Shown here one piece after another: positions 1,502 to 57,661 of a stretch of DNA of 64,000 bases (positions are counted from its first letter, which is position 1; every line of letters starts with the position of its first letter). This DNA comes from an uncultured Candidatus Saccharibacteria bacterium (GTDB lineage Bacteria; Patescibacteriota; Minisyncoccia; Phycocordibacterales; DATDWN01): contig CAZTQY010000003.1 in assembly GCA_964616425.1 (NCBI GenBank), forward strand, positions 47,402 to 111,401. Reading direction: 5' to 3'. The position numbers and the translations under genes were made by a program. A model generated the notes under the pieces. The model had not been told where the DNA came from, ran no database searches, and saw only the letters and a list, made by a program, of their open reading frames with translations.

Positions 1502-4273
1502 ATGAGTATAACAGTCACAAGGCATGATGGTAAAAAAGAACCTTTCAATGCCGATAAAATTAATCGTTCTATAGAAAGAGCATGTTATGGATTGTTCGAT
1601 CCAGTCTCAAAAGTGACTCAAATTGCGACTGAAACTCAACTCACTCTCTATGATGGAATCACAACTGATGAAATGGATCAGGCGACTATCAACGCTGCAG
1701 TTCAAAATATAAAAGATGACATCGAATACGATATTGTCGCAAAAAGACTCCTACTTAAAACTCTGTATAGACAAGTTATAAAGGATTTTCATCCTGGGGA
1801 CGAATCTGAAGTTTTTGCAGGTAAACATAGAAAGAGTTTTGTTGATTTTATAGAGACAGGAGTTGCGAATGGAAAACTTCACCCAGAAATGAAGGCAAAG
1901 TTTAACCTAGATGAACTGGCTAATACACTAAGATTGGAAAGAGATGAGTTGTTTCAATACGCTGGACTAGATGGACTCATAAACCGATATTTAATAAAAG
2001 ATATAAATCAAAAACCAATAGAAGTTCCTCAGTATTTCTTTATGCGAATCGCAATGGGTCTTTCATATAACGAAAGCAATCCAACTGAAATGGCAAAAAA
2101 GTTCTACAATAAAATGTCTAGATTGGAGTATGTTGCCGGCGGTTCTACAAACCTAGCTGCAGGAACTATTAACCCAGCGCTATCAAATTGTTATCTTTTG
2201 GAGATTCAAGATAACATGAACCACATTGCTAAATCTGTATCTGACGTTATGCTTCTATCAAAAGGCTCAGGTGGAATAGGTGCTTCTGTTACAAAACTTC
2301 GTGCTTCAGGTTCTCCACTTAGAAAATATGGAGGTACATCCACAGGACCAACACCATTTGCAAAAATAATCGATACTGCTATACGTGCTATTCAGAGAGG
2401 GGGAAAGAAAAAAGGTGCACTTTGTTTTTATATGGAAAATTGGCATATTGATTTTCCAGAATTTCTTGATTGGAAGAAGAATAATGGTGATGACTATATG
2501 AGAATGAGAACTGCAAACACTGCTGTTTATCTTTCTGACGAGTTTATGAAAAGAGTTTCTGCTGGTGATGATTGGTACATGTTTGATCCAGCTGAAACAG
2601 AAGATCTAAATGAACTTTACGGTGAAGCTTTTTCAAAGAGATATGCAGAATATGTTGAAATGGCAAACTCTGGAAAAATGAGAGTGTTTAAGAAAGCTCC
2701 GGCTACAGAACAATACAGACAAATTTTAACAGAGCTTCAGAGTTCATCTCATCCTTGGTTAGTCTGGAAAGATTCAATTAACCTTCGTGCTCTAAATAAC
2801 AATACAGGTACTATTCATATGAGTAACTTGTGTACAGAAATCTGTCTGCCACAAGATAAAGATAACGTTGCTGTTTGTAACCTCGCGTCTCTTAACCTTG
2901 CAGCTCATATAAAGAACAAAGAAGTAAATTGGGCTAGATTGGAAGAGTCTGTTCGTCTAGCCGTAAGACAACTCGATAATCTTATTGATATCAATGTTCT
3001 ACCTATCCCAGAGGCAGCAAAATCAGATAGTGAGAATCGAGCTGTAGGTTTGGGTGTGATGGGATTTTCAGATACGATAGAGCAACTTGGTATGTCATAT
3101 GATTCTCCTCATGCTTGGGATTTTGCTGACAGGATATTTGAATTTGTTTCTTATATGGCAATCGATGAGTCAGCTAATTTGGCACAAGAGCGGGGTAGTT
3201 ATGCAAACTTTCAAGGTTCTGAGTGGTCAAAGGGTAAAGTTCCAATCGACACACTTTCTACATTGGAAGCCGGCAGAGGCAAACCGCTAACAGTTTCTAA
3301 AGTTAGTAAACACAAGGGTCTGAACTGGGATGTGCTTCGTGCAAAGGTTTCAAAAGGGATAAGAAATGCAACACTAATGGCTGTAGCACCAAACGCGAAC
3401 ATTGGATTGGTTGCTGCAACAACTCCAGGAATAGATGCTAGGTTTGCTCAAGTATTTTCTAGAAATAAAATTTCTGGTAAATATCTTGATATAAATCACA
3501 ACCTCGTAAAGGATTTGATAAACCTTGGATTGTGGGATGATGTAAAAGAACAGATTATTGAAAACCAAGGAGATATTGCTGAAATCGCTCAAATACCTCA
3601 ACACATAAAAGACATATATAAAACTTCTTTCACAACATCACCATTTGCTTATATAGAAGTTGCTGCTCGTGCACAGAAATGGGTAGATCAGGCTTTATCT
3701 AGAAACATGTATCTTGAAACTAGAGATATAGATGAGACAATGAAGATATACAGTACTGCCTGGGAAAAGGGTCTCAAGTCAACATACTATCTCCACATGA
3801 AGCCTCGACATACAGCTGAACAGTCAACTACAAATGTGAACAAGGCAGCAAAGATAGGAAAAGTTGGATTCGGTGCGTTGAATTTCAGCAACTCAAATGC
3901 TTTTGCTTCTCCACTTCAAAAATCTTTTAGTGTTGTAAACCCAAGCCAGGTTGTTGCTAGTGAGCCTTCGATTAGTGAATCTGCTATAAAACAAGCAAAA
4001 GAGGATGCTATATCTAACATAACATTGGAAGAGGAAATATTAGTTTCTACTTCAAAGGCTGTTGAAGAAATTTTACCTAAAAATAATGTTGAGCCTAGTT
4101 TTGAGCCATTACAAAAGTCTATATTAGATCAGAATAAACCTGAGCTAGTTGCACAAATTCAAAAAAACGAATATAAATCACTTGAGCAGGTAAACAATAA
4201 TATTAAGAAATACAATATCATTGCTCCTGAAGATCCAGCTGATAGTGATAACATCTGTATTGCTTGTCAGTAA
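1502..4273 (+). CDS. nrdA: Ribonucleoside-diphosphate reductase alpha subunit (class I) with N-terminal ATP-cone and long C-terminal low-complexity linker ending in a Cys pair
   Basis: ATP-cone at the N-terminus, catalytic motifs (NLCTEI, PxAxxS-like), C-terminal CIACQ. Confidence 0.9.
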   Translation: MSITVTRHDGKKEPFNADKINRSIERACYGLFDPVSKVTQIATETQLTLYDGITTDEMDQATINAAVQNIKDDIEYDIVAKRLLLKTLYRQVIKDFHPGDESEVFAGKHRKSFVDFIETGVANGKLHPEMKAKFNLDELANTLRLERDELFQYAGLDGLINRYLIKDINQKPIEVPQYFFMRIAMGLSYNESNPTEMAKKFYNKMSRLEYVAGGSTNLAAGTINPALSNCYLLEIQDNMNHIAKSVSDVMLLSKGSGGIGASVTKLRASGSPLRKYGGTSTGPTPFAKIIDTAIRAIQRGGKKKGALCFYMENWHIDFPEFLDWKKNNGDDYMRMRTANTAVYLSDEFMKRVSAGDDWYMFDPAETEDLNELYGEAFSKRYAEYVEMANSGKMRVFKKAPATEQYRQILTELQSSSHPWLVWKDSINLRALNNNTGTIHMSNLCTEICLPQDKDNVAVCNLASLNLAAHIKNKEVNWARLEESVRLAVRQLDNLIDINVLPIPEAAKSDSENRAVGLGVMGFSDTIEQLGMSYDSPHAWDFADRIFEFVSYMAIDESANLAQERGSYANFQGSEWSKGKVPIDTLSTLEAGRGKPLTVSKVSKHKGLNWDVLRAKVSKGIRNATLMAVAPNANIGLVAATTPGIDARFAQVFSRNKISGKYLDINHNLVKDLINLGLWDDVKEQIIENQGDIAEIAQIPQHIKDIYKTSFTTSPFAYIEVAARAQKWVDQALSRNMYLETRDIDETMKIYSTAWEKGLKSTYYLHMKPRHTAEQSTTNVNKAAKIGKVGFGALNFSNSNAFASPLQKSFSVVNPSQVVASEPSISESAIKQAKEDAISNITLEEEILVSTSKAVEEILPKNNVEPSFEPLQKSILDQNKPELVAQIQKNEYKSLEQVNNNIKKYNIIAPEDPADSDNICIACQ

Positions 4274-15313: not shown

Positions 15314-15419
15314 ACTGTAATAATAACGTAAAAATATCGTCTAATTTAGAGCCATCTGGCTCTTTTTTAGTATAAATTTTAGGAGACAAAAGATTCCAAA
15401 ATGGTGTATAATCATAAAG

Positions 15420-20333: not shown

Positions 20334-20409
20334 GCCACCTTAGCTCAGTTGGTAGAGCACTCGTTTTGTAAACGAGAGCGGGTCAGTTCGAGCCTGACAG
20401 GTGGCTCCA
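20334..20409 (+). tRNA. tRNA-Thr (anticodon UGU) with encoded CCA
   Basis: Cloverleaf folded by hand: acceptor GCCACCT/AGGTGGC, D-arm GCTC..GAGC, anticodon loop TTTGTAA, T-arm GTCAG-TTCGAGC-CTGAC. Confidence 0.9.
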
Positions 20410-20412
20410 AAA

Positions 20413-20440
20413 CAAAAAAACTCCAGTATTGGAGTTTTTT
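20413..20440 (+). terminator. Terminator after the tRNA
   Basis: ctccagtattggag followed by a ttttttt run. Confidence 0.6.
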
Positions 20441-20460
20441 TGTTTTCCACAATTTATATT

Positions 20461-20488
20461 GATGGTGAACTTTCGTTCACTTATAATT
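20461..20488 (+). promoter_or_regulatory. Promoter with embedded LexA (Cheo-type) box GAAC-N4-GTTC between -35 and -10
   Basis: tgatg GTGAACtttcGTTCAC t TATAAT. The -10 ends 6 nt before the HNH ATG, so the transcript may be leaderless. Confidence 0.5.
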
Positions 20489-20494
20489 ATAGAT

Positions 20495-20914
20495 ATGAAT
20501 CAGAACAGAATTTGTATTGGTTGTGGAATTAAAATGACTTTGCGTCATAAAATAAAATATTGCTCTAATAAATGTCAGATGGGTCACCGTTATAAACTTT
20601 GGTTAATTTGTTGGAGAAATGGTTTAAATACAGGTAATGTAGGTATCACATCTGGGAATATATCAGGTCATTTAAGACGTTATTTAATTGATAAATACAA
20701 AAACAAATGCTCTCAATGTGGCTGGAACAAAATGCACCCAATTACTGGAAATGTACCACTCGAAATAGATCATATAGATGGCAATTCAGAAAATAATAAT
20801 GAAGATAATCTTCGTTTGCTTTGTCCAAACTGTCATGCGTTGACTCCATTTTTTAAAAATTTAAATAGAGGAAAAGGTAGAAAGTGGAGAACAGATAAAT
20901 ACATTAAAAATTAA
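20495..20914 (+). CDS. HNH endonuclease
   Basis: EIDHIDGNSENNNEDNLRLLCPNCH plus N-terminal Cys clusters. Confidence 0.8.
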   Translation: MNQNRICIGCGIKMTLRHKIKYCSNKCQMGHRYKLWLICWRNGLNTGNVGITSGNISGHLRRYLIDKYKNKCSQCGWNKMHPITGNVPLEIDHIDGNSENNNEDNLRLLCPNCHALTPFFKNLNRGKGRKWRTDKYIKN

Positions 20915-20933
20915 TATTGTATACTTATATCCA

Positions 20934-21098
20934 ATGGAGCGGAAAAAACTTGTCTATCTAGGTTTGTTTATAGGGTCGTCTGTTGGTGGTTTTATCCCAT
21001 CATTATGGGATGGTGGAGCGTTTTCTATGAGCGGGATAATCTGGAGTGGAATAGGGGGTATATTGGGGATTTATCTTGGTTTTAAATTTGGAGATTAG
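20934..21098 (+). CDS. 54-aa glycine-zipper membrane peptide (GlsB/YeaQ/YmgE-like)
   Basis: GxxxG repeats: GSSVGGFIPS..GIIWSGIGGILGIYLG. Confidence 0.35.
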   Translation: MERKKLVYLGLFIGSSVGGFIPSLWDGGAFSMSGIIWSGIGGILGIYLGFKFGD

Positions 21099-27410: not shown

Positions 27411-28664
27411 CTAGGATTTATTGATAATCTCTTCCTTTAGCTTTATTAGAAGTTCATCAGCTGTCATTTGTCCCAACTGTCCGTTGTCTCGTGACTCCAG
27501 AGTGACTTTTCCAGCTTCAACTTCCTTATCTCCTAATACAATCCAGTATGGCATTTTATTTGTTTTTGCATCTCGTACCTTTGATCCTAGGTTTTCATCT
27601 GCTAGATCAAGTTCAGAACGGATACCTGCTTCTATCAGCATTTTGTGGACCTTTTCTGCATACTCACCATGATTTTCTCGAACAGGGATAACTTTAACTT
27701 GAGTTGGTGAAAGCCATAGTGGGAAAGAACCGCCGTAATGTTCGATAAGGAAAGCCATAATCCTTTCGATTGCCCCAATAGATGATCGGTGTATTACAGA
27801 AGAACAAAGTTTTACCGCTCCATCAGAGTCAGTAAATGAAAGTTCAAATTTACCTGGAGCTAGAAAGTCATATTGTACAGTGAATGCAGTATTTTCAATT
27901 CCACGAACGTCTTTCATTTGGACGTCAATCTTTGGTCCATAAAATGCCGCTTCGTTTTCTGCTTCGGTAAACTTCACATCTTGTGATTGTAGAACTTCGC
28001 GCAAAGCTTGCTCTGCCTCATCCCAGGCCTCATCATTTTTAAAATATTTTTTGTCATCATTTCTGTCTCCCAAAGAAAGTCTGTACCAAAAATCTTCTCC
28101 TTTTTTTAGACCAAAAACTCCTGCAACATGTGTTATAAGGTCCAAGGCTCTTTGCACTTCTGATTTTGATTGCTCTTTATTTGCACAAATAATATGGGCA
28201 TCAGCTAGGCAGAATGAACGAACTCGAACAAGTCCAGAAAGGTTTCCAGAGGCTTCATATCGATACAATTTAGCCATCTCAGCTATACGTATTGGTAGTT
28301 CTCTGTATGAGTGAGGCTTAGAAAGATAAAGTTCGTAGTGATGAGGACAAGTCATCGGTCGTAACATAAACTCTTCACCATCAATATCGATAGGAGAATA
28401 CATCGTGTCCTTGTAATATGGATAATGGCCAGACTTTTTATATAAATCTAGTTTTGCAATATCAGGAGTTGATACATGTTTGTATCCACGTTTAATTTCT
28501 TCATCTACTATAAATCTTTCAAGTTCACGTCGGATTGTAGCTCCTTTGTCGGTGTAAAGAGGAAGACCCTTACCAACAACATCTGAGAACACGAATAACC
28601 CTAATTCTTTACCAATGACTCGATGGTCATTTTTATCCATTTCGTTGTTTTTGTCGTTTTCCAT
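27411..28664 (-). CDS. thrS: Threonyl-tRNA synthetase, catalytic core plus anticodon-binding domain; lacks the N-terminal TGS/editing domains
   Basis: HRVIGKELGLF, RPMTCPHH, class II motifs. Confidence 0.85.
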   Translation of the reverse strand: MENDKNNEMDKNDHRVIGKELGLFVFSDVVGKGLPLYTDKGATIRRELERFIVDEEIKRGYKHVSTPDIAKLDLYKKSGHYPYYKDTMYSPIDIDGEEFMLRPMTCPHHYELYLSKPHSYRELPIRIAEMAKLYRYEASGNLSGLVRVRSFCLADAHIICANKEQSKSEVQRALDLITHVAGVFGLKKGEDFWYRLSLGDRNDDKKYFKNDEAWDEAEQALREVLQSQDVKFTEAENEAAFYGPKIDVQMKDVRGIENTAFTVQYDFLAPGKFELSFTDSDGAVKLCSSVIHRSSIGAIERIMAFLIEHYGGSFPLWLSPTQVKVIPVRENHGEYAEKVHKMLIEAGIRSELDLADENLGSKVRDAKTNKMPYWIVLGDKEVEAGKVTLESRDNGQLGQMTADELLIKLKEEIINKS

Positions 28665-55199: not shown

Positions 55200-55421
55200 C
55201 TAGAGGGCTATGCCTTGATGTTCCATGGACCACAATAGCAGTCCAATCAACAAGAAGAGCACGATGATGCCGAGTGTGAACGCCCGAGGATGTTTCTCGT
55301 ATAGCTGAGCGAGCTCATCCTCGATTTCTTTGTTTGTTGCGTAAGTGCCCCGGTATTCCAGATTCATGGAGCGCTCGACGTCGGTGGTTAGAGCCTCTGG
55401 GTCGGAGATCTCTTGGGTCAT
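55200..55421 (-). CDS. High-GC cassette N gene 1: 73-aa protein with C-terminal TM helix (start at the internal ATG that has the SD)
   Basis: SD gaggaggg 4 nt upstream of ATG at 55421. C-terminal LGIIVLFLLIGLLLW. Confidence 0.45.
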   Translation of the reverse strand: MTQEISDPEALTTDVERSMNLEYRGTYATNKEIEDELAQLYEKHPRAFTLGIIVLFLLIGLLLWSMEHQGIAL

Positions 55422-55454
55422 GCACCCTCCTCTCAAAATAGCATACAGAAGTGT

Positions 55455-55505
55455 AGAATTTTTTCAAATAAGGAAAGGGCCGTCACCTTTGTAAGATGAC
55501 GGCCT
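55455..55505 (-). terminator. Minus-strand terminator for the small ORF 55549-55719
   Basis: ggccgtca..tgacggcc followed on the minus strand by ctttccttatttg. Confidence 0.5.
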
Positions 55506-55548
55506 TGTATTGCGGATTGTGTGGTGGGGGGGTCTTGCGGGGAACTTG

Positions 55549-55719
55549 CTACTTCTGTACTTCTCGTACGACGTAGCCCGTTTCTGGGCTCCATGCGCGG
55601 ACGACGACCTTGGATTCGGGCTGGTCCTGTTTTTCCTCGACCAACTTGACCTCGTCGAGGGCCAGGAAGTGACGGGGAACCACGTGCCCGACGGAACGGC
55701 GACTCCTTAGTGACGGCAT
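55549..55719 (-). CDS. High-GC cassette N gene 2: 56-aa protein (not in the supplied ORF track; below its length cut-off)
   Basis: SD aggaga 6 nt upstream of ATG at 55719, followed by a terminator. MPSLRSRRSVGHVVPRHFLALDEVKLVEEKQDQPESKVVVRAWSPETGYVVREVQK. Confidence 0.35.
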   Translation of the reverse strand: MPSLRSRRSVGHVVPRHFLALDEVKLVEEKQDQPESKVVVRAWSPETGYVVREVQK

Positions 55720-56760: not shown

Positions 56761-56806
56761 TTGCAAATAGTTTTTTCTTGTATAGAATAAAAAATAGAGG
56801 TGGCCG

Positions 56807-57310
56807 ATGAAGCCGTTCGCTGAGTTGTTGGGGTCTAACAAGGAAAACACCTTCAACTTTTTTCTTTACGGACTGGGTGAGGTAACCGGCAGAAAGAGTG
56901 AGAGTGATCGTGAACTGATGTATGTTACAAGTATTCTGGCACACTTTGCCGGAACACCTTGCTCCTCGAAATACAGGCCGTTTGTTACGCCCACAGATTT
57001 TCGTGTAGTGGTCGATAACTTCGTACTTGGGAGCATTGCGTTTTATGACTCCCATTGTCTTGCAGACGGAGGGGCCAAGACCCTGTTTTTGGCCGGGTTC
57101 TTCCGTAGTCAGATGGCGGGTAGGCATAACGTAAACTGGTGTGACAGTGTTGGCTCGAGTTTGTTCAGACGCGCCGCATCAGTATCCTCAAGTAGGAGAG
57201 AAGCTATCCTGTTTGAAGGTCTCTCACACAGTTTCACCTACTGGACTTTCGTTTGTTCAGAGTTGCAAAAGCATCTACACGAAAGCAGGCTTATGATCAA
57301 AAGTTTGTAA
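56807..57310 (+). CDS. High-GC cassette O: hypothetical 167-aa protein
   Basis: SD agaggtgg, GC about 52%, and a terminator. Confidence 0.45.
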   Translation: MKPFAELLGSNKENTFNFFLYGLGEVTGRKSESDRELMYVTSILAHFAGTPCSSKYRPFVTPTDFRVVVDNFVLGSIAFYDSHCLADGGAKTLFLAGFFRSQMAGRHNVNWCDSVGSSLFRRAASVSSSRREAILFEGLSHSFTYWTFVCSELQKHLHESRLMIKSL

Positions 57311-57321
57311 ATCGTGATTGG

Positions 57322-57358
57322 AAAGGGGCTGGGTATTCGTACCCATGCCCCTTTGTCG
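57322..57358 (+). terminator. Terminator of cassette O
   Basis: aggggctgggtattcgtacccatgcccct followed by ttgtcg. Confidence 0.55.
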
Positions 57359-57388
57359 TAGTTATCCACATATTCTTTATTAACAATG

Positions 57389-57418
57389 TTGACCAGTGAA
57401 CCCTAGTTCACTTATAAT
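57389..57418 (+). promoter_or_regulatory. lexA operon promoter with embedded LexA box (GAAC-N4-GTTC)
   Basis: TTGACC a GTGAACcctaGTTCAC t TATAAT. Confidence 0.55.
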
Positions 57419-57469: not shown

Positions 57470-57661
57470 ATGAGTAAACAAAATTTTGAAAAATCATTGA
57501 AAAAAGAGTTGAGGGTCATAAATGAAATTATAGATATGAAAATTATCCGTGGTCTGTCATATGCTAACGAAGCAAAGAGACATAAGTTTATTCTTTCTAG
57601 TCTTGCAAATATAAAGAGAGCAAATTCTAACTGGATGGTGAGGACATTTAATTTTGCCTAA
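57470..57661 (+). CDS. Small hypothetical protein (63 aa) overlapping the lexA start by 8 nt
   Basis: Co-oriented with lexA and lies downstream of the LexA-box promoter. Confidence 0.4.
   Translation: MSKQNFEKSLKKELRVINEIIDMKIIRGLSYANEAKRHKFILSSLANIKRANSNWMVRTFNFA

Follow-up and report, generated by a model that had tools for sequence, protein, structure and literature searches.

Homing endonuclease genes in the transfer RNA (tRNA) clusters of phages T4 and T5 are already known, as are HNH nucleases under SOS control. In phage T5, the F-Tfl open reading frames (ORFs) located in the tRNA cluster were called homing endonucleases, and intron-less homing has been described for SegB, the gene of which lies in the tRNA cluster of phage T4 (PMC2330249). 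The segB ORF abuts tRNA-Arg, and it was proposed that tRNA processing limits segB expression (PMC2330249). Here we describe an HNH endonuclease gene located next to tRNA-Thr(UGU) in a stretch of 64,000 nucleotides (nt), hereafter the window, from the chromosome of an uncultured Candidatus Saccharibacteria bacterium (contig CAZTQY010000003.1, positions 47,402 to 111,401). An initial annotation of the window had drawn attention to a LexA-type palindrome in the promoter of this gene.

Colicins E7 and E9 are HNH nucleases under LexA control. The Gram-positive-type LexA consensus, known as the Cheo box, is GAAC-N4-GTTC, which is also the core of the palindrome discussed here. The SOS regulon, or the Gram-positive-type LexA box, of Patescibacteria was reportedly treated by Sanchez-Osuna, Barbe and Erill in Environ Microbiol in 2017. 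Additionally, SOS-induced putative HNH endonucleases have been found in Mycobacterium tuberculosis (PMC8151990). From the comparisons that follow, we consider it rather probable that the gene in the window is a free-standing homing-type HNH gene beside tRNA-Thr, placed under a LexA-repressed promoter. Judged by the identity, placement and conservation of its operator, the gene is most likely a member of the LexA (SOS) regulon, with damage induction predicted.

A tgatg-palindrome-t-TATAAT promoter had been described ahead of the ATG of the HNH gene, and it is present in the sequence in that form (Table 1). A consensus scan of this promoter gives 10 of 12 consensus matches and a spacer of 17 nt, nearly all of which is perfect palindrome; read from these elements, the promoter is of the sigma-70 type, with an operator overlapping its core promoter elements. 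The gene also lies directly 3' of tRNA-Thr(UGU) and its intrinsic terminator, as originally reported. The terminator, to judge from its predicted fold, insulates the HNH promoter from tRNA transcription, and in two of the comparison loci (designated here by L numbers), L001 and L248, its stem is retained and its loop altered. A second copy of the operator is found in the promoter of the lexA operon, which reads TTGACC-a-GTGAACcctaGTTCAC-t-TATAAT. The initial annotation had argued against chance from the two GAAC-N4-GTTC sites in the 64 kb. The count is correct, but its significance is not, as 1.14 sites are expected and 29 of 100 shuffles reach two. What exceeds chance is the 23-mer GTGAAC-N4-GTTCAC-T-TATAAT shared by the two promoters, of which there are two exact copies (20465-20487 and 57396-57418) against 0.03 expected, a number reached in 0 of 100 shuffles. 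Similarly, the promoter architecture that had been called identical is so only within the core promoter, where the match begins with the palindrome's first G and ends with the final T of the -10 hexamer; in contrast to the probably leaderless HNH gene, the lexA operon of the window has a leader of about 50 nt. The sole other site in the window within three mismatches of the HNH operator, TTGAACTTTCATTTAC at 27832-27847 on the minus strand, has damaged half-sites.

The product of the window's lexA gene passes the curated equivalog model TIGR00498 (114.6 bits, cut-off 110.95) and matches Peptidase_S24 at 1e-25; by inspection it has the Ala79-Gly80 cleavage site (VEA/GIP), Ser115 (GDSM) and Lys152 (MKYF). 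Many bacteria labelled Parcubacteria, Zambryskibacteria, Paceibacterota or Minisyncoccia have LexA proteins 80-93% identical to it, and the window accordingly belongs to this part of the Patescibacteria. We compared its promoter with the lexA loci of four relatives (L161-L164), all of which read TTGAC(t/g)g-GTGAAC-N4-GTTCAC-t followed by the -10 hexamer, with the operator in the same position, the half-sites invariant and the N4 spacers TAGG, CATC, TGTG and CGTA. Because the second copy of the palindrome heads the operon of a genuine LexA and recurs at the lexA genes of four relatives, the palindrome, as defined at the lexA promoter, is on sequence criteria the LexA operator of the lineage. 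The HNH promoter has the same half-sites as the lexA promoter, which agrees with the earlier claim of a real LexA-type operator inside the promoter driving the nuclease gene.

Conservation of the operator was followed through 80 chromosomal loci holding an HNH homolog. An exact LexA box lies between tRNA-Thr and the HNH start in only L001, L014 and L017 of these, and a box also precedes the HNH gene in L248-250, three contigs with the 88%-identical protein P0001. The window, L001, L248-250, L014 and L017 thus provide five distinct LexA-type HNH promoters, in which the N4 spacers are TTTC, TATG, TATA, GATT and GATT, while 12 of 12 half-site bases and TATAAT are identical and an upstream TTATCCACA is kept within one mismatch. 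Synonymous divergence (dS) among the HNH genes of the window, L001 and L248 is 1.2-4.7, and since synonymous sites are saturated, the conservation of the operator represents a real footprint and not recent common ancestry. The same results bear on the idea that the palindrome is due to chance or to structure and that LexA does not regulate the HNH gene. The lack of over-representation of GAAC-N4-GTTC alone would allow for this, but the 23-nt identity with the lexA promoter and the invariant half-sites around a variable spacer in nine promoters, despite saturated neutral divergence, make the idea hardly credible.

Most HNH homologs have a different promoter. The LexA box is absent before the HNH gene in 76 of the 80 genome loci and in four metagenome copies, and TATACCA-N16-17-TGGTATA is found there instead. 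These non-LexA promoters have an extended -10, TGGTATAMT, located 6-9 nt before the ATG and paired with the upstream TATACCA arm. The repeat type also occurs in L081, L082 and L251, the proteins of which are 68-76% identical to the HNH protein of the window. Exact TACCA-N14-19-TGGTA occurs 14 times in the 1.09 Mb of DNA fetched, nine times directly 5' of an HNH gene, with spacers of 16-17 at HNH promoters. Examples of repeat-type promoters are L019 787-812, L027 3954-3979, L081 5072-5098, L100 5091-5117 and L251 at about 405-440. The inverted repeat is a candidate family-specific operator that may serve in autorepression, a behavior for which I-TevI is known. Reading it as a degenerate pair of DnaA boxes was considered and rejected, as the arm consensus, TATACCAYC, has no CACA core.

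In a neighbour-joining tree the repeat type is found across the whole family and the LexA type in one clade only, where both types are mixed; SOS control therefore appears to be a derived, lineage-specific rewiring. Promoter types are mixed even within one host context, as related hosts with the same downstream genes have different HNH promoters (L001 versus L252 and L253). Among loci labelled Zambryskibacteria, the bin L005 has an HNH gene without the box and L163, named for its LexA, has a standard lexA operator, although the two are not the same genome. The initial annotation had considered the case in which all relatives carry the gene without the palindrome. Most relatives lack the gene altogether, and most of the copies that exist do lack the LexA box, having the other inverted repeat.

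A further element, TTATCCACA, which is the DnaA-box consensus, stands 5' of the -35 hexamer in all LexA-type promoters examined, comprising five lexA promoters (all perfect) and five HNH promoters (three perfect, two with one mismatch). Upstream of the HNH promoter it is perfect in L001, L014 and L248-250, and reads CTATCCACA in L017 and TTTTCCACA in the window; its position is -53 from the HNH ATG in L001, L014 and L017. Repeat-type HNH promoters do not have it. There are two perfect copies in the window, one at the lexA promoter and one at the nrd promoter (1357-1365), the latter just 5' of the promoter of a 923-amino-acid (aa) ribonucleotide reductase gene (1502-4273). This distribution suggests a second regulator at the lexA, HNH and nrd promoters, possibly DnaA. 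An element common to the clade's LexA promoters and the nrd promoter would be a hint of combined control by SOS and replication status. The ribonucleotide reductase leader (1410-1447) additionally holds a long perfect palindrome, AAATATCTGCAATTTTT...AAAAATTGCAGATATTT, that could be a regulator site or a hairpin.

The gap between the -10 hexamer and the HNH ATG, first given as 6 nt, is 7 bases (20488-20494) and contains no Shine-Dalgarno sequence. HNH homologs share the start methionine within the motif M-x3-R-x-C-x2-C (alignment of 21), and the distance from -10 to ATG is 6-9 nt in more than 20 homologous loci with either operator type. Because the ATG follows so closely on the promoter and no Shine-Dalgarno sequence intervenes, the HNH mRNA is probably leaderless; with the start supported by homologs, a leaderless transcript, as the initial annotation proposed, is the most likely arrangement. 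A Shine-Dalgarno-like motif was found at only 4 of the window's 39 long ORFs, and in at least 9 of them a -10-like hexamer directly adjoins the ATG. With Shine-Dalgarno sequences rare and many -10 hexamers abutting the ATG, leaderless mRNAs look like the norm in this genome. Hexamers resembling (TGn)TATAAT stand 5-10 nt before the ATG at many window genes, for example at 15419, 17292, 45313 and 50698. A longer HNH ORF starting from TTG at 20429 was rejected, as it is not conserved and would run through the terminator and operator.

The HNH protein contains a zinc ribbon (C7-x2-C10...C23-x3-C27) and an HNH core (C72-x2-C75, D92-H93, N105, C110-x2-C113-H114). In 21 aligned family members, H93, N105, H114, C72, C75, C110 and C113 are invariant, the ribbon has the form CxxC...CSxxC, and the basic tail is nearly invariant. 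The protein matches Pfam HNH at 25.0 bits (cut-off 21.4), HNH_3 at 24.8 bits, exactly at the threshold of 24.8, and PHROG 1271, 'HNH endonuclease', over residues 5-125 (1.5e-19), and its top PADLOC model is 'homing endonuclease' (7e-14). An AlphaFold model with a mean confidence score (pLDDT) of 80 places strands at 90-93 and 106-109 followed by a helix, the HNH-type beta-beta-alpha-metal fold. With the Pfam threshold passed and the catalytic and zinc residues present, the earlier call of an HNH nuclease is sound as a prediction. Long forms of 216-223 aa (L014 421-1071, L017 166-834, L033 and L059) have an extra N-terminal zinc ribbon, CxxC...YCSxxC; the promoters of L014 and L017 are LexA-type. 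The gene has a ratio of nonsynonymous to synonymous divergence (dN/dS) of about 0.06, which indicates strong purifying selection, and its product is 60-70% identical to more than 100 Patescibacteria proteins.

The closest structures and curated families are less specific. A fold search of the PDB returned as best matches the generic HNH domains of McrA, Cap5 and Cas9, all weak with E-values of 0.004 or worse; a sequence search of solved structures gave only marginal McrA and NapB matches; and the best NCBIfam matches, well under their cut-offs, were to IscB and ZorE and were confined to the HNH core. These weak similarities to ZorE and Cap5 could be taken to indicate a toxin or defence nuclease, that is, an SOS-induced HNH DNase with a suicide or abortive-infection function, or else a bacteriocin, and a LexA-controlled HNH gene is the arrangement of colicins E7 and E9. 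The SOS-induced putative HNH endonucleases of M. tuberculosis would provide another parallel (PMC8151990). We nevertheless find such a role improbable. The matches to defence proteins cover the generic HNH core only, no immunity, lysis or sensor gene lies nearby, the neighbours are housekeeping genes without a PADLOC hit, no partner gene is conserved across loci, the protein is only a zinc ribbon plus HNH, and the adjacency to tRNA genes would be left unexplained.

This adjacency is found throughout the family. A tRNA gene lies within 400 nt of the HNH gene in 77 of the 80 chromosomal loci, and tRNA-Thr is the neighbour in 71 (mostly UGU or CGU, one GGU), including loci in cyanobacteria and Chloroflexota; six Acidobacteriota copies adjoin tRNA-Ala(CGC). 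The geometry varies, with the tRNA upstream or downstream and on either strand, and tRNA-Thr(UGU) is inverted relative to tsf and/or HNH in some close relatives, L081 (4918-4993), L122 (760-834), L004, L022, L031 and L047, which points to local rearrangement. In the CGU-linked subfamily the HNH ORF often ends inside the tRNA. In many family members (chromosomal loci L060, L068, L076 and L079; viral loci L168, L181, L198 and L206-208) the ORF extends 10 nt into the downstream tRNA, the stop codon TAG being the invariant U8-A9-G10 of the tRNA. With the stop codon inside the tRNA, a single transcript must give rise to both nuclease mRNA and tRNA, and tRNA 5' processing must cut it where the ORF ends.

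Viruses carry the gene in a similar setting. A search of IMG/VR contigs found 351 relatives, of which 80 were kept, and 60 of the 80 kept loci have a tRNA gene no more than 400 nt away, most of them being placed inside tRNA arrays. As a rule the ORF ends about 10 nt or less from the 5' end of the tRNA (Arg, Thr, Ser, Lys, His, Tyr and others), or overlaps that end. Among cultured phages, 222 records have a match, with Escherichia and Salmonella phages best represented and phages of Gordonia, Streptomyces and Synechococcus also present. Full-length homologs are found in the T5-like phage HdH2, in records of jumbo-sized Escherichia/Cronobacter phages (350-380 kb), and in Streptomyces and Synechococcus phages. 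HdH2 gp177 is 38% identical over its full length, and its gene is flanked by a T5.059 homolog and by tRNA-Thr, with a one-base overlap into the tRNA, whereas in phage T5 itself T5.059 is directly followed by tRNA-Thr(UGU), an empty site. T5 hegA shares 50% identity over the HNH core (58 aa). The family spans Patescibacteria, Cyanobacteria, Chloroflexota, Acidobacteriota and phages, and is of a phage type and probably selfish. Within the library of papers searched, none connects an HNH family with tRNA-Thr, and the pattern of a large tRNA-linked family combining zinc ribbon and HNH is apparently undescribed.

The position of the gene directly 3' of a tRNA, a classical integration site, had led to the suggestion of a remnant integrative element; more specifically, the HNH gene could be the last cargo of an element integrated in tRNA-Thr. 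The search for an att-like repeat of the tRNA 3' end that had been proposed with this suggestion was made over the whole window and found none. The 24-mer at the tRNA 3' end recurs nowhere else in the 64 kb, even with three mismatches allowed, no att-like direct repeats were found in the window, and no integrase was found among the genes near tRNA-Thr. The locus otherwise contains rpsB, tsf, a 126-aa membrane protein, a 54-aa membrane ORF, a thioredoxin-like protein, a GT2 glycosyltransferase and pheS. In about 150 loci the gene may precede or follow the tRNA, in either orientation, and often runs over the tRNA 5' end; filled and empty sites differ by one gene. The family adjoins tRNA-Thr in hundreds of genomes of Patescibacteria, cyanobacteria and Chloroflexota, and many tRNA species in the arrays of phages; the adjacency is thus a trait of the family and not an integration scar, and we regard the suggestion as very improbable.

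Comparison of relatives for presence or absence of the gene, as had been proposed, was anchored on EF-Ts, the product of tsf. From 80 metagenome loci fetched, 49 were informative, with at least 600 nt beyond the tRNA. The tsf–tRNA-Thr locus is conserved, as tRNA-Thr(UGU) is found in 63 of the 80, mostly about 0.4-0.6 kb downstream of tsf. The HNH gene is absent from 43 of the 49 informative loci and intact in three (L081, L082 and L091); one copy is decayed, and the remaining two are marginal matches, one inside the tRNA. In L084 some 22 codons from the 3' end of HNH persist, interrupted by additional sequence, the copies in L031 and L067 are truncated, and in L100 the gene is on the opposite side of the tRNA. 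The filled locus L081 and the empty locus L122 are distinguished by a clean indel of about 460 nt, made up of exactly the HNH promoter and ORF, between common flanks of 71-73% nucleotide identity (tsf, the 126-aa gene, an inverted tRNA-Thr, the thioredoxin-like gene and GT2). This pattern of presence and absence is that of a free-standing homing-type gene.

Presence in close relatives can also be read as the mark of a domesticated SOS effector, a damage-induced nuclease serving the host, for instance in processing branched or damaged DNA, for which tRNA adjacency would be merely ancestral. Such an effector would suit a lineage with a very small repair gene set. The gene is present in most of the close relatives examined, defined by an EF-Ts identity of at least 70% or as the nearest HNH homologs (L001, L081, L082 and L248-253), divergence of HNH and EF-Ts is roughly parallel, and the more than 100 Patescibacteria proteins at 60-70% identity fit as well. 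Between LexA-type copies dN/dS is about 0.06 with dS above 1, and the operator, the -10 hexamer and the upstream box are conserved over the same distance. However, the gene is dispensable, since it is absent at the 43 syntenic loci, decayed in L084 and cleanly missing in L122. Closely related hosts with the same downstream genes have unrelated promoters (L001 versus L252), and abundance in the tRNA arrays of lytic phages is unexpected for a repair gene. We therefore view domestication as a possibility to be taken seriously, if an unlikely one.

Several observations weigh against a selfish homing-type gene under LexA control. The identities of HNH and EF-Ts between pairs of loci (72 versus 76%, 68 versus 72% and 61 versus 56%) are roughly parallel, so vertical descent with many losses is possible. 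A dN/dS of about 0.06 at saturated dS points to stronger and longer constraint than a purely vertical selfish gene should keep. A comparison of 56 tRNA-Thr(UGU) genes beside HNH with 43 at empty sites found no diagnostic position, and hence there is no sign of target immunity. Together, the parallel identities, the strong constraint and the lack of a diagnostic tRNA position would allow a role that benefits the host. The LexA box is present in only 5 of about 90 HNH promoters examined, which makes SOS control lineage-specific. The cleavage site, the target and homing itself are predictions, as are LexA binding and damage induction.

The homing-type gene under LexA control would function as follows. 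A LexA dimer bound between the -35 and -10 hexamers would block RNA polymerase until DNA damage leads to RecA filaments and LexA self-cleavage, upon which the HNH promoter would fire and the leaderless mRNA would be translated into nuclease. The nuclease would nick or cut at or near tRNA-Thr loci without the gene, and RecA-dependent repair would copy the cassette, by analogy with the intron-less homing of SegB. Under such control a dangerous nuclease would stay silent for most of the time and be produced at times of active recombination repair. For phage copies and many chromosomal ones, which are fused to the tRNA 5' end, tRNA processing may keep expression low, in line with the proposal made for SegB (PMC2330249). 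In the window, the terminator and the LexA-repressed promoter would take over this limiting role and add timing to periods of RecA activity, with the upstream TTATCCACA-type element as a second input, possibly for DnaA. The damage-responsive nuclease of a mobile element, raised as an alternative in the initial annotation, is close to this explanation.

If correct, this would be a clear and comparatively supported case in which a homing-type nuclease gene of a bacterium from the candidate phyla radiation stands under a host SOS operator. In organisms with minimal repair sets, the activity of a selfish gene, or of a domesticated nuclease, would thereby be linked to DNA damage. It would also turn the old observation of homing endonucleases in the tRNA clusters of T4 and T5 into a general, testable rule. 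What seems to be new is the LexA operator on a tRNA-linked homing-type HNH gene in a chromosome of the candidate phyla radiation, the breadth of the family's tRNA linkage, and the TTATCCACA element common to LexA-type promoters. No known biology is overturned, and the nuclease role is a predicted one. A bolder proposal, which we consider quite doubtful, is that a tRNA-gene-specific homing system common to T5-like and jumbo phages and to the chromosomes of Patescibacteria, cyanobacteria and Chloroflexota has been captured here by host stress circuits (LexA plus the DnaA-box-like element), so that damage would result in programmed cutting and gene conversion at tRNA-Thr. Were this true, the HNH protein would be a domesticated, damage-induced, site-specific nuclease and not a mere parasite.

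Table 1. Features of the HNH and lexA loci in the 64-kb window
Feature	Position	Strand	Remarks
tRNA-Thr(UGU)	20334-20409	+	ARAGORN; Rfam tRNA 62.8 bits; gene type this HNH family adjoins
Intrinsic terminator hairpin of tRNA transcript, A7-CTCCA-gtat-TGGAG-T7	20409-20446	+	RNA fold -19.5 kcal/mol, z = -7.9
TTTTCCACA, one mismatch to DnaA-box consensus TTATCCACA	20443-20451	+	5' of HNH -35
-35 hexamer TTGATG	20459-20464	+	Promoter scan
Predicted LexA operator GTGAAC-tttc-GTTCAC (palindrome GTGAACtttcGTTCAC)	20465-20480	+	Fills -35/-10 spacer
-10 hexamer TATAAT	20482-20487	+	7 nt 5' of ATG
HNH endonuclease gene, 139 aa	20495-20914	+	N-terminal zinc ribbon, HNH core, conserved basic tail
54-aa two-helix membrane ORF	20934-21098		Own -10-like TATACT at 20920-20925; also L248 671-835
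Perfect TTATCCACA (DnaA-box consensus)	57362-57370	+	5' of lexA-operon promoter
lexA-operon promoter: -35 TTGACC, operator GTGAAC-ccta-GTTCAC (57396-57411), -10 TATAAT (57413-57418)	57389-57418	+	
63-aa ORF	57470-57661	+	First gene of LexA-controlled operon; conserved in L161-L164
lexA, 192 aa	57663-58241	+	Second gene of operon

Two small ORFs accompany these loci. Downstream of the HNH gene, the 54-aa ORF occurs in the window and the P0001 contigs; it is truncated in L084 (at about 3190-3240) and absent from other HNH loci. It was considered as part of the HNH unit and rejected, because a -10-like hexamer of its own precedes it and its conservation does not follow that of HNH across loci. 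The first ORF of the lexA operon ends with its stop codon 1 nt before the lexA ATG and has no Pfam, NCBIfam or PHROG family match. It encodes 63-66 aa in the window and the four relatives, always between the LexA operator and lexA, with the motif MSKQNFEKSLKKEL..LNEIID.KI.RGL.Y..EA.RHKF.... Upstream of the operon, stretches at about 55200-55700 and 56800-57350 have 49-55% G+C in a genome of about 35% G+C and contain ORFs without a Pfam match (e.g. 56807-57310, 167 aa). In all 64 kb the only Rfam match is the tRNA; neither stretch gave one, for that before lexA even at a relaxed E-value threshold. A strong hairpin, AAAGGGGC...GCCCCTTT, closes this second stretch just 5' of the lexA promoter.

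Compared with known systems, the family most resembles the tRNA-cluster endonucleases of T5 (hegA, hegC and hegD, F-Tfl HNH genes) and T4 (segB, GIY-YIG), which are likewise small nuclease ORFs wedged among tRNAs and often ending at or inside the next tRNA. It shares with them the presence or absence of a single gene, as in the filled HdH2 and empty T5 sites at tRNA-Thr. Unlike those genes, the window copy is chromosomal and located downstream of the tRNA, behind a terminator, with its own putative LexA-repressed promoter, and homing of this family is predicted from sequence only. The HNH domains of McrA, Cap5 and Cas9/IscB, the best PDB and NCBIfam matches, have the same beta-beta-alpha-metal fold and CxxC...CxxC zinc site, but the match is limited to a core of about 60 aa, and the window protein has no sensor, SAVED, RuvC or RNA-guide parts. 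With colicins E7 and E9 and the M. tuberculosis enzymes it has in common an HNH gene under LexA and induced by damage, which is predicted here. In contrast to these, the window gene comes without immunity or lysis genes or a plasmid, has a single operator, and encodes a 139-aa intracellular protein of a different HNH subfamily; linkage to a tRNA is found only here. As in Gram-positive-type LexA regulation, the operator overlaps the core promoter and sits at lexA itself. It differs in being an extended, lineage-specific GTGAAC-N4-GTTCAC placed exactly between the -35 and -10 hexamers, and in contrast to Gram-positive-type lexA autoregulation, TTATCCACA is always present upstream and lexA is the second gene, after the 63-aa ORF.

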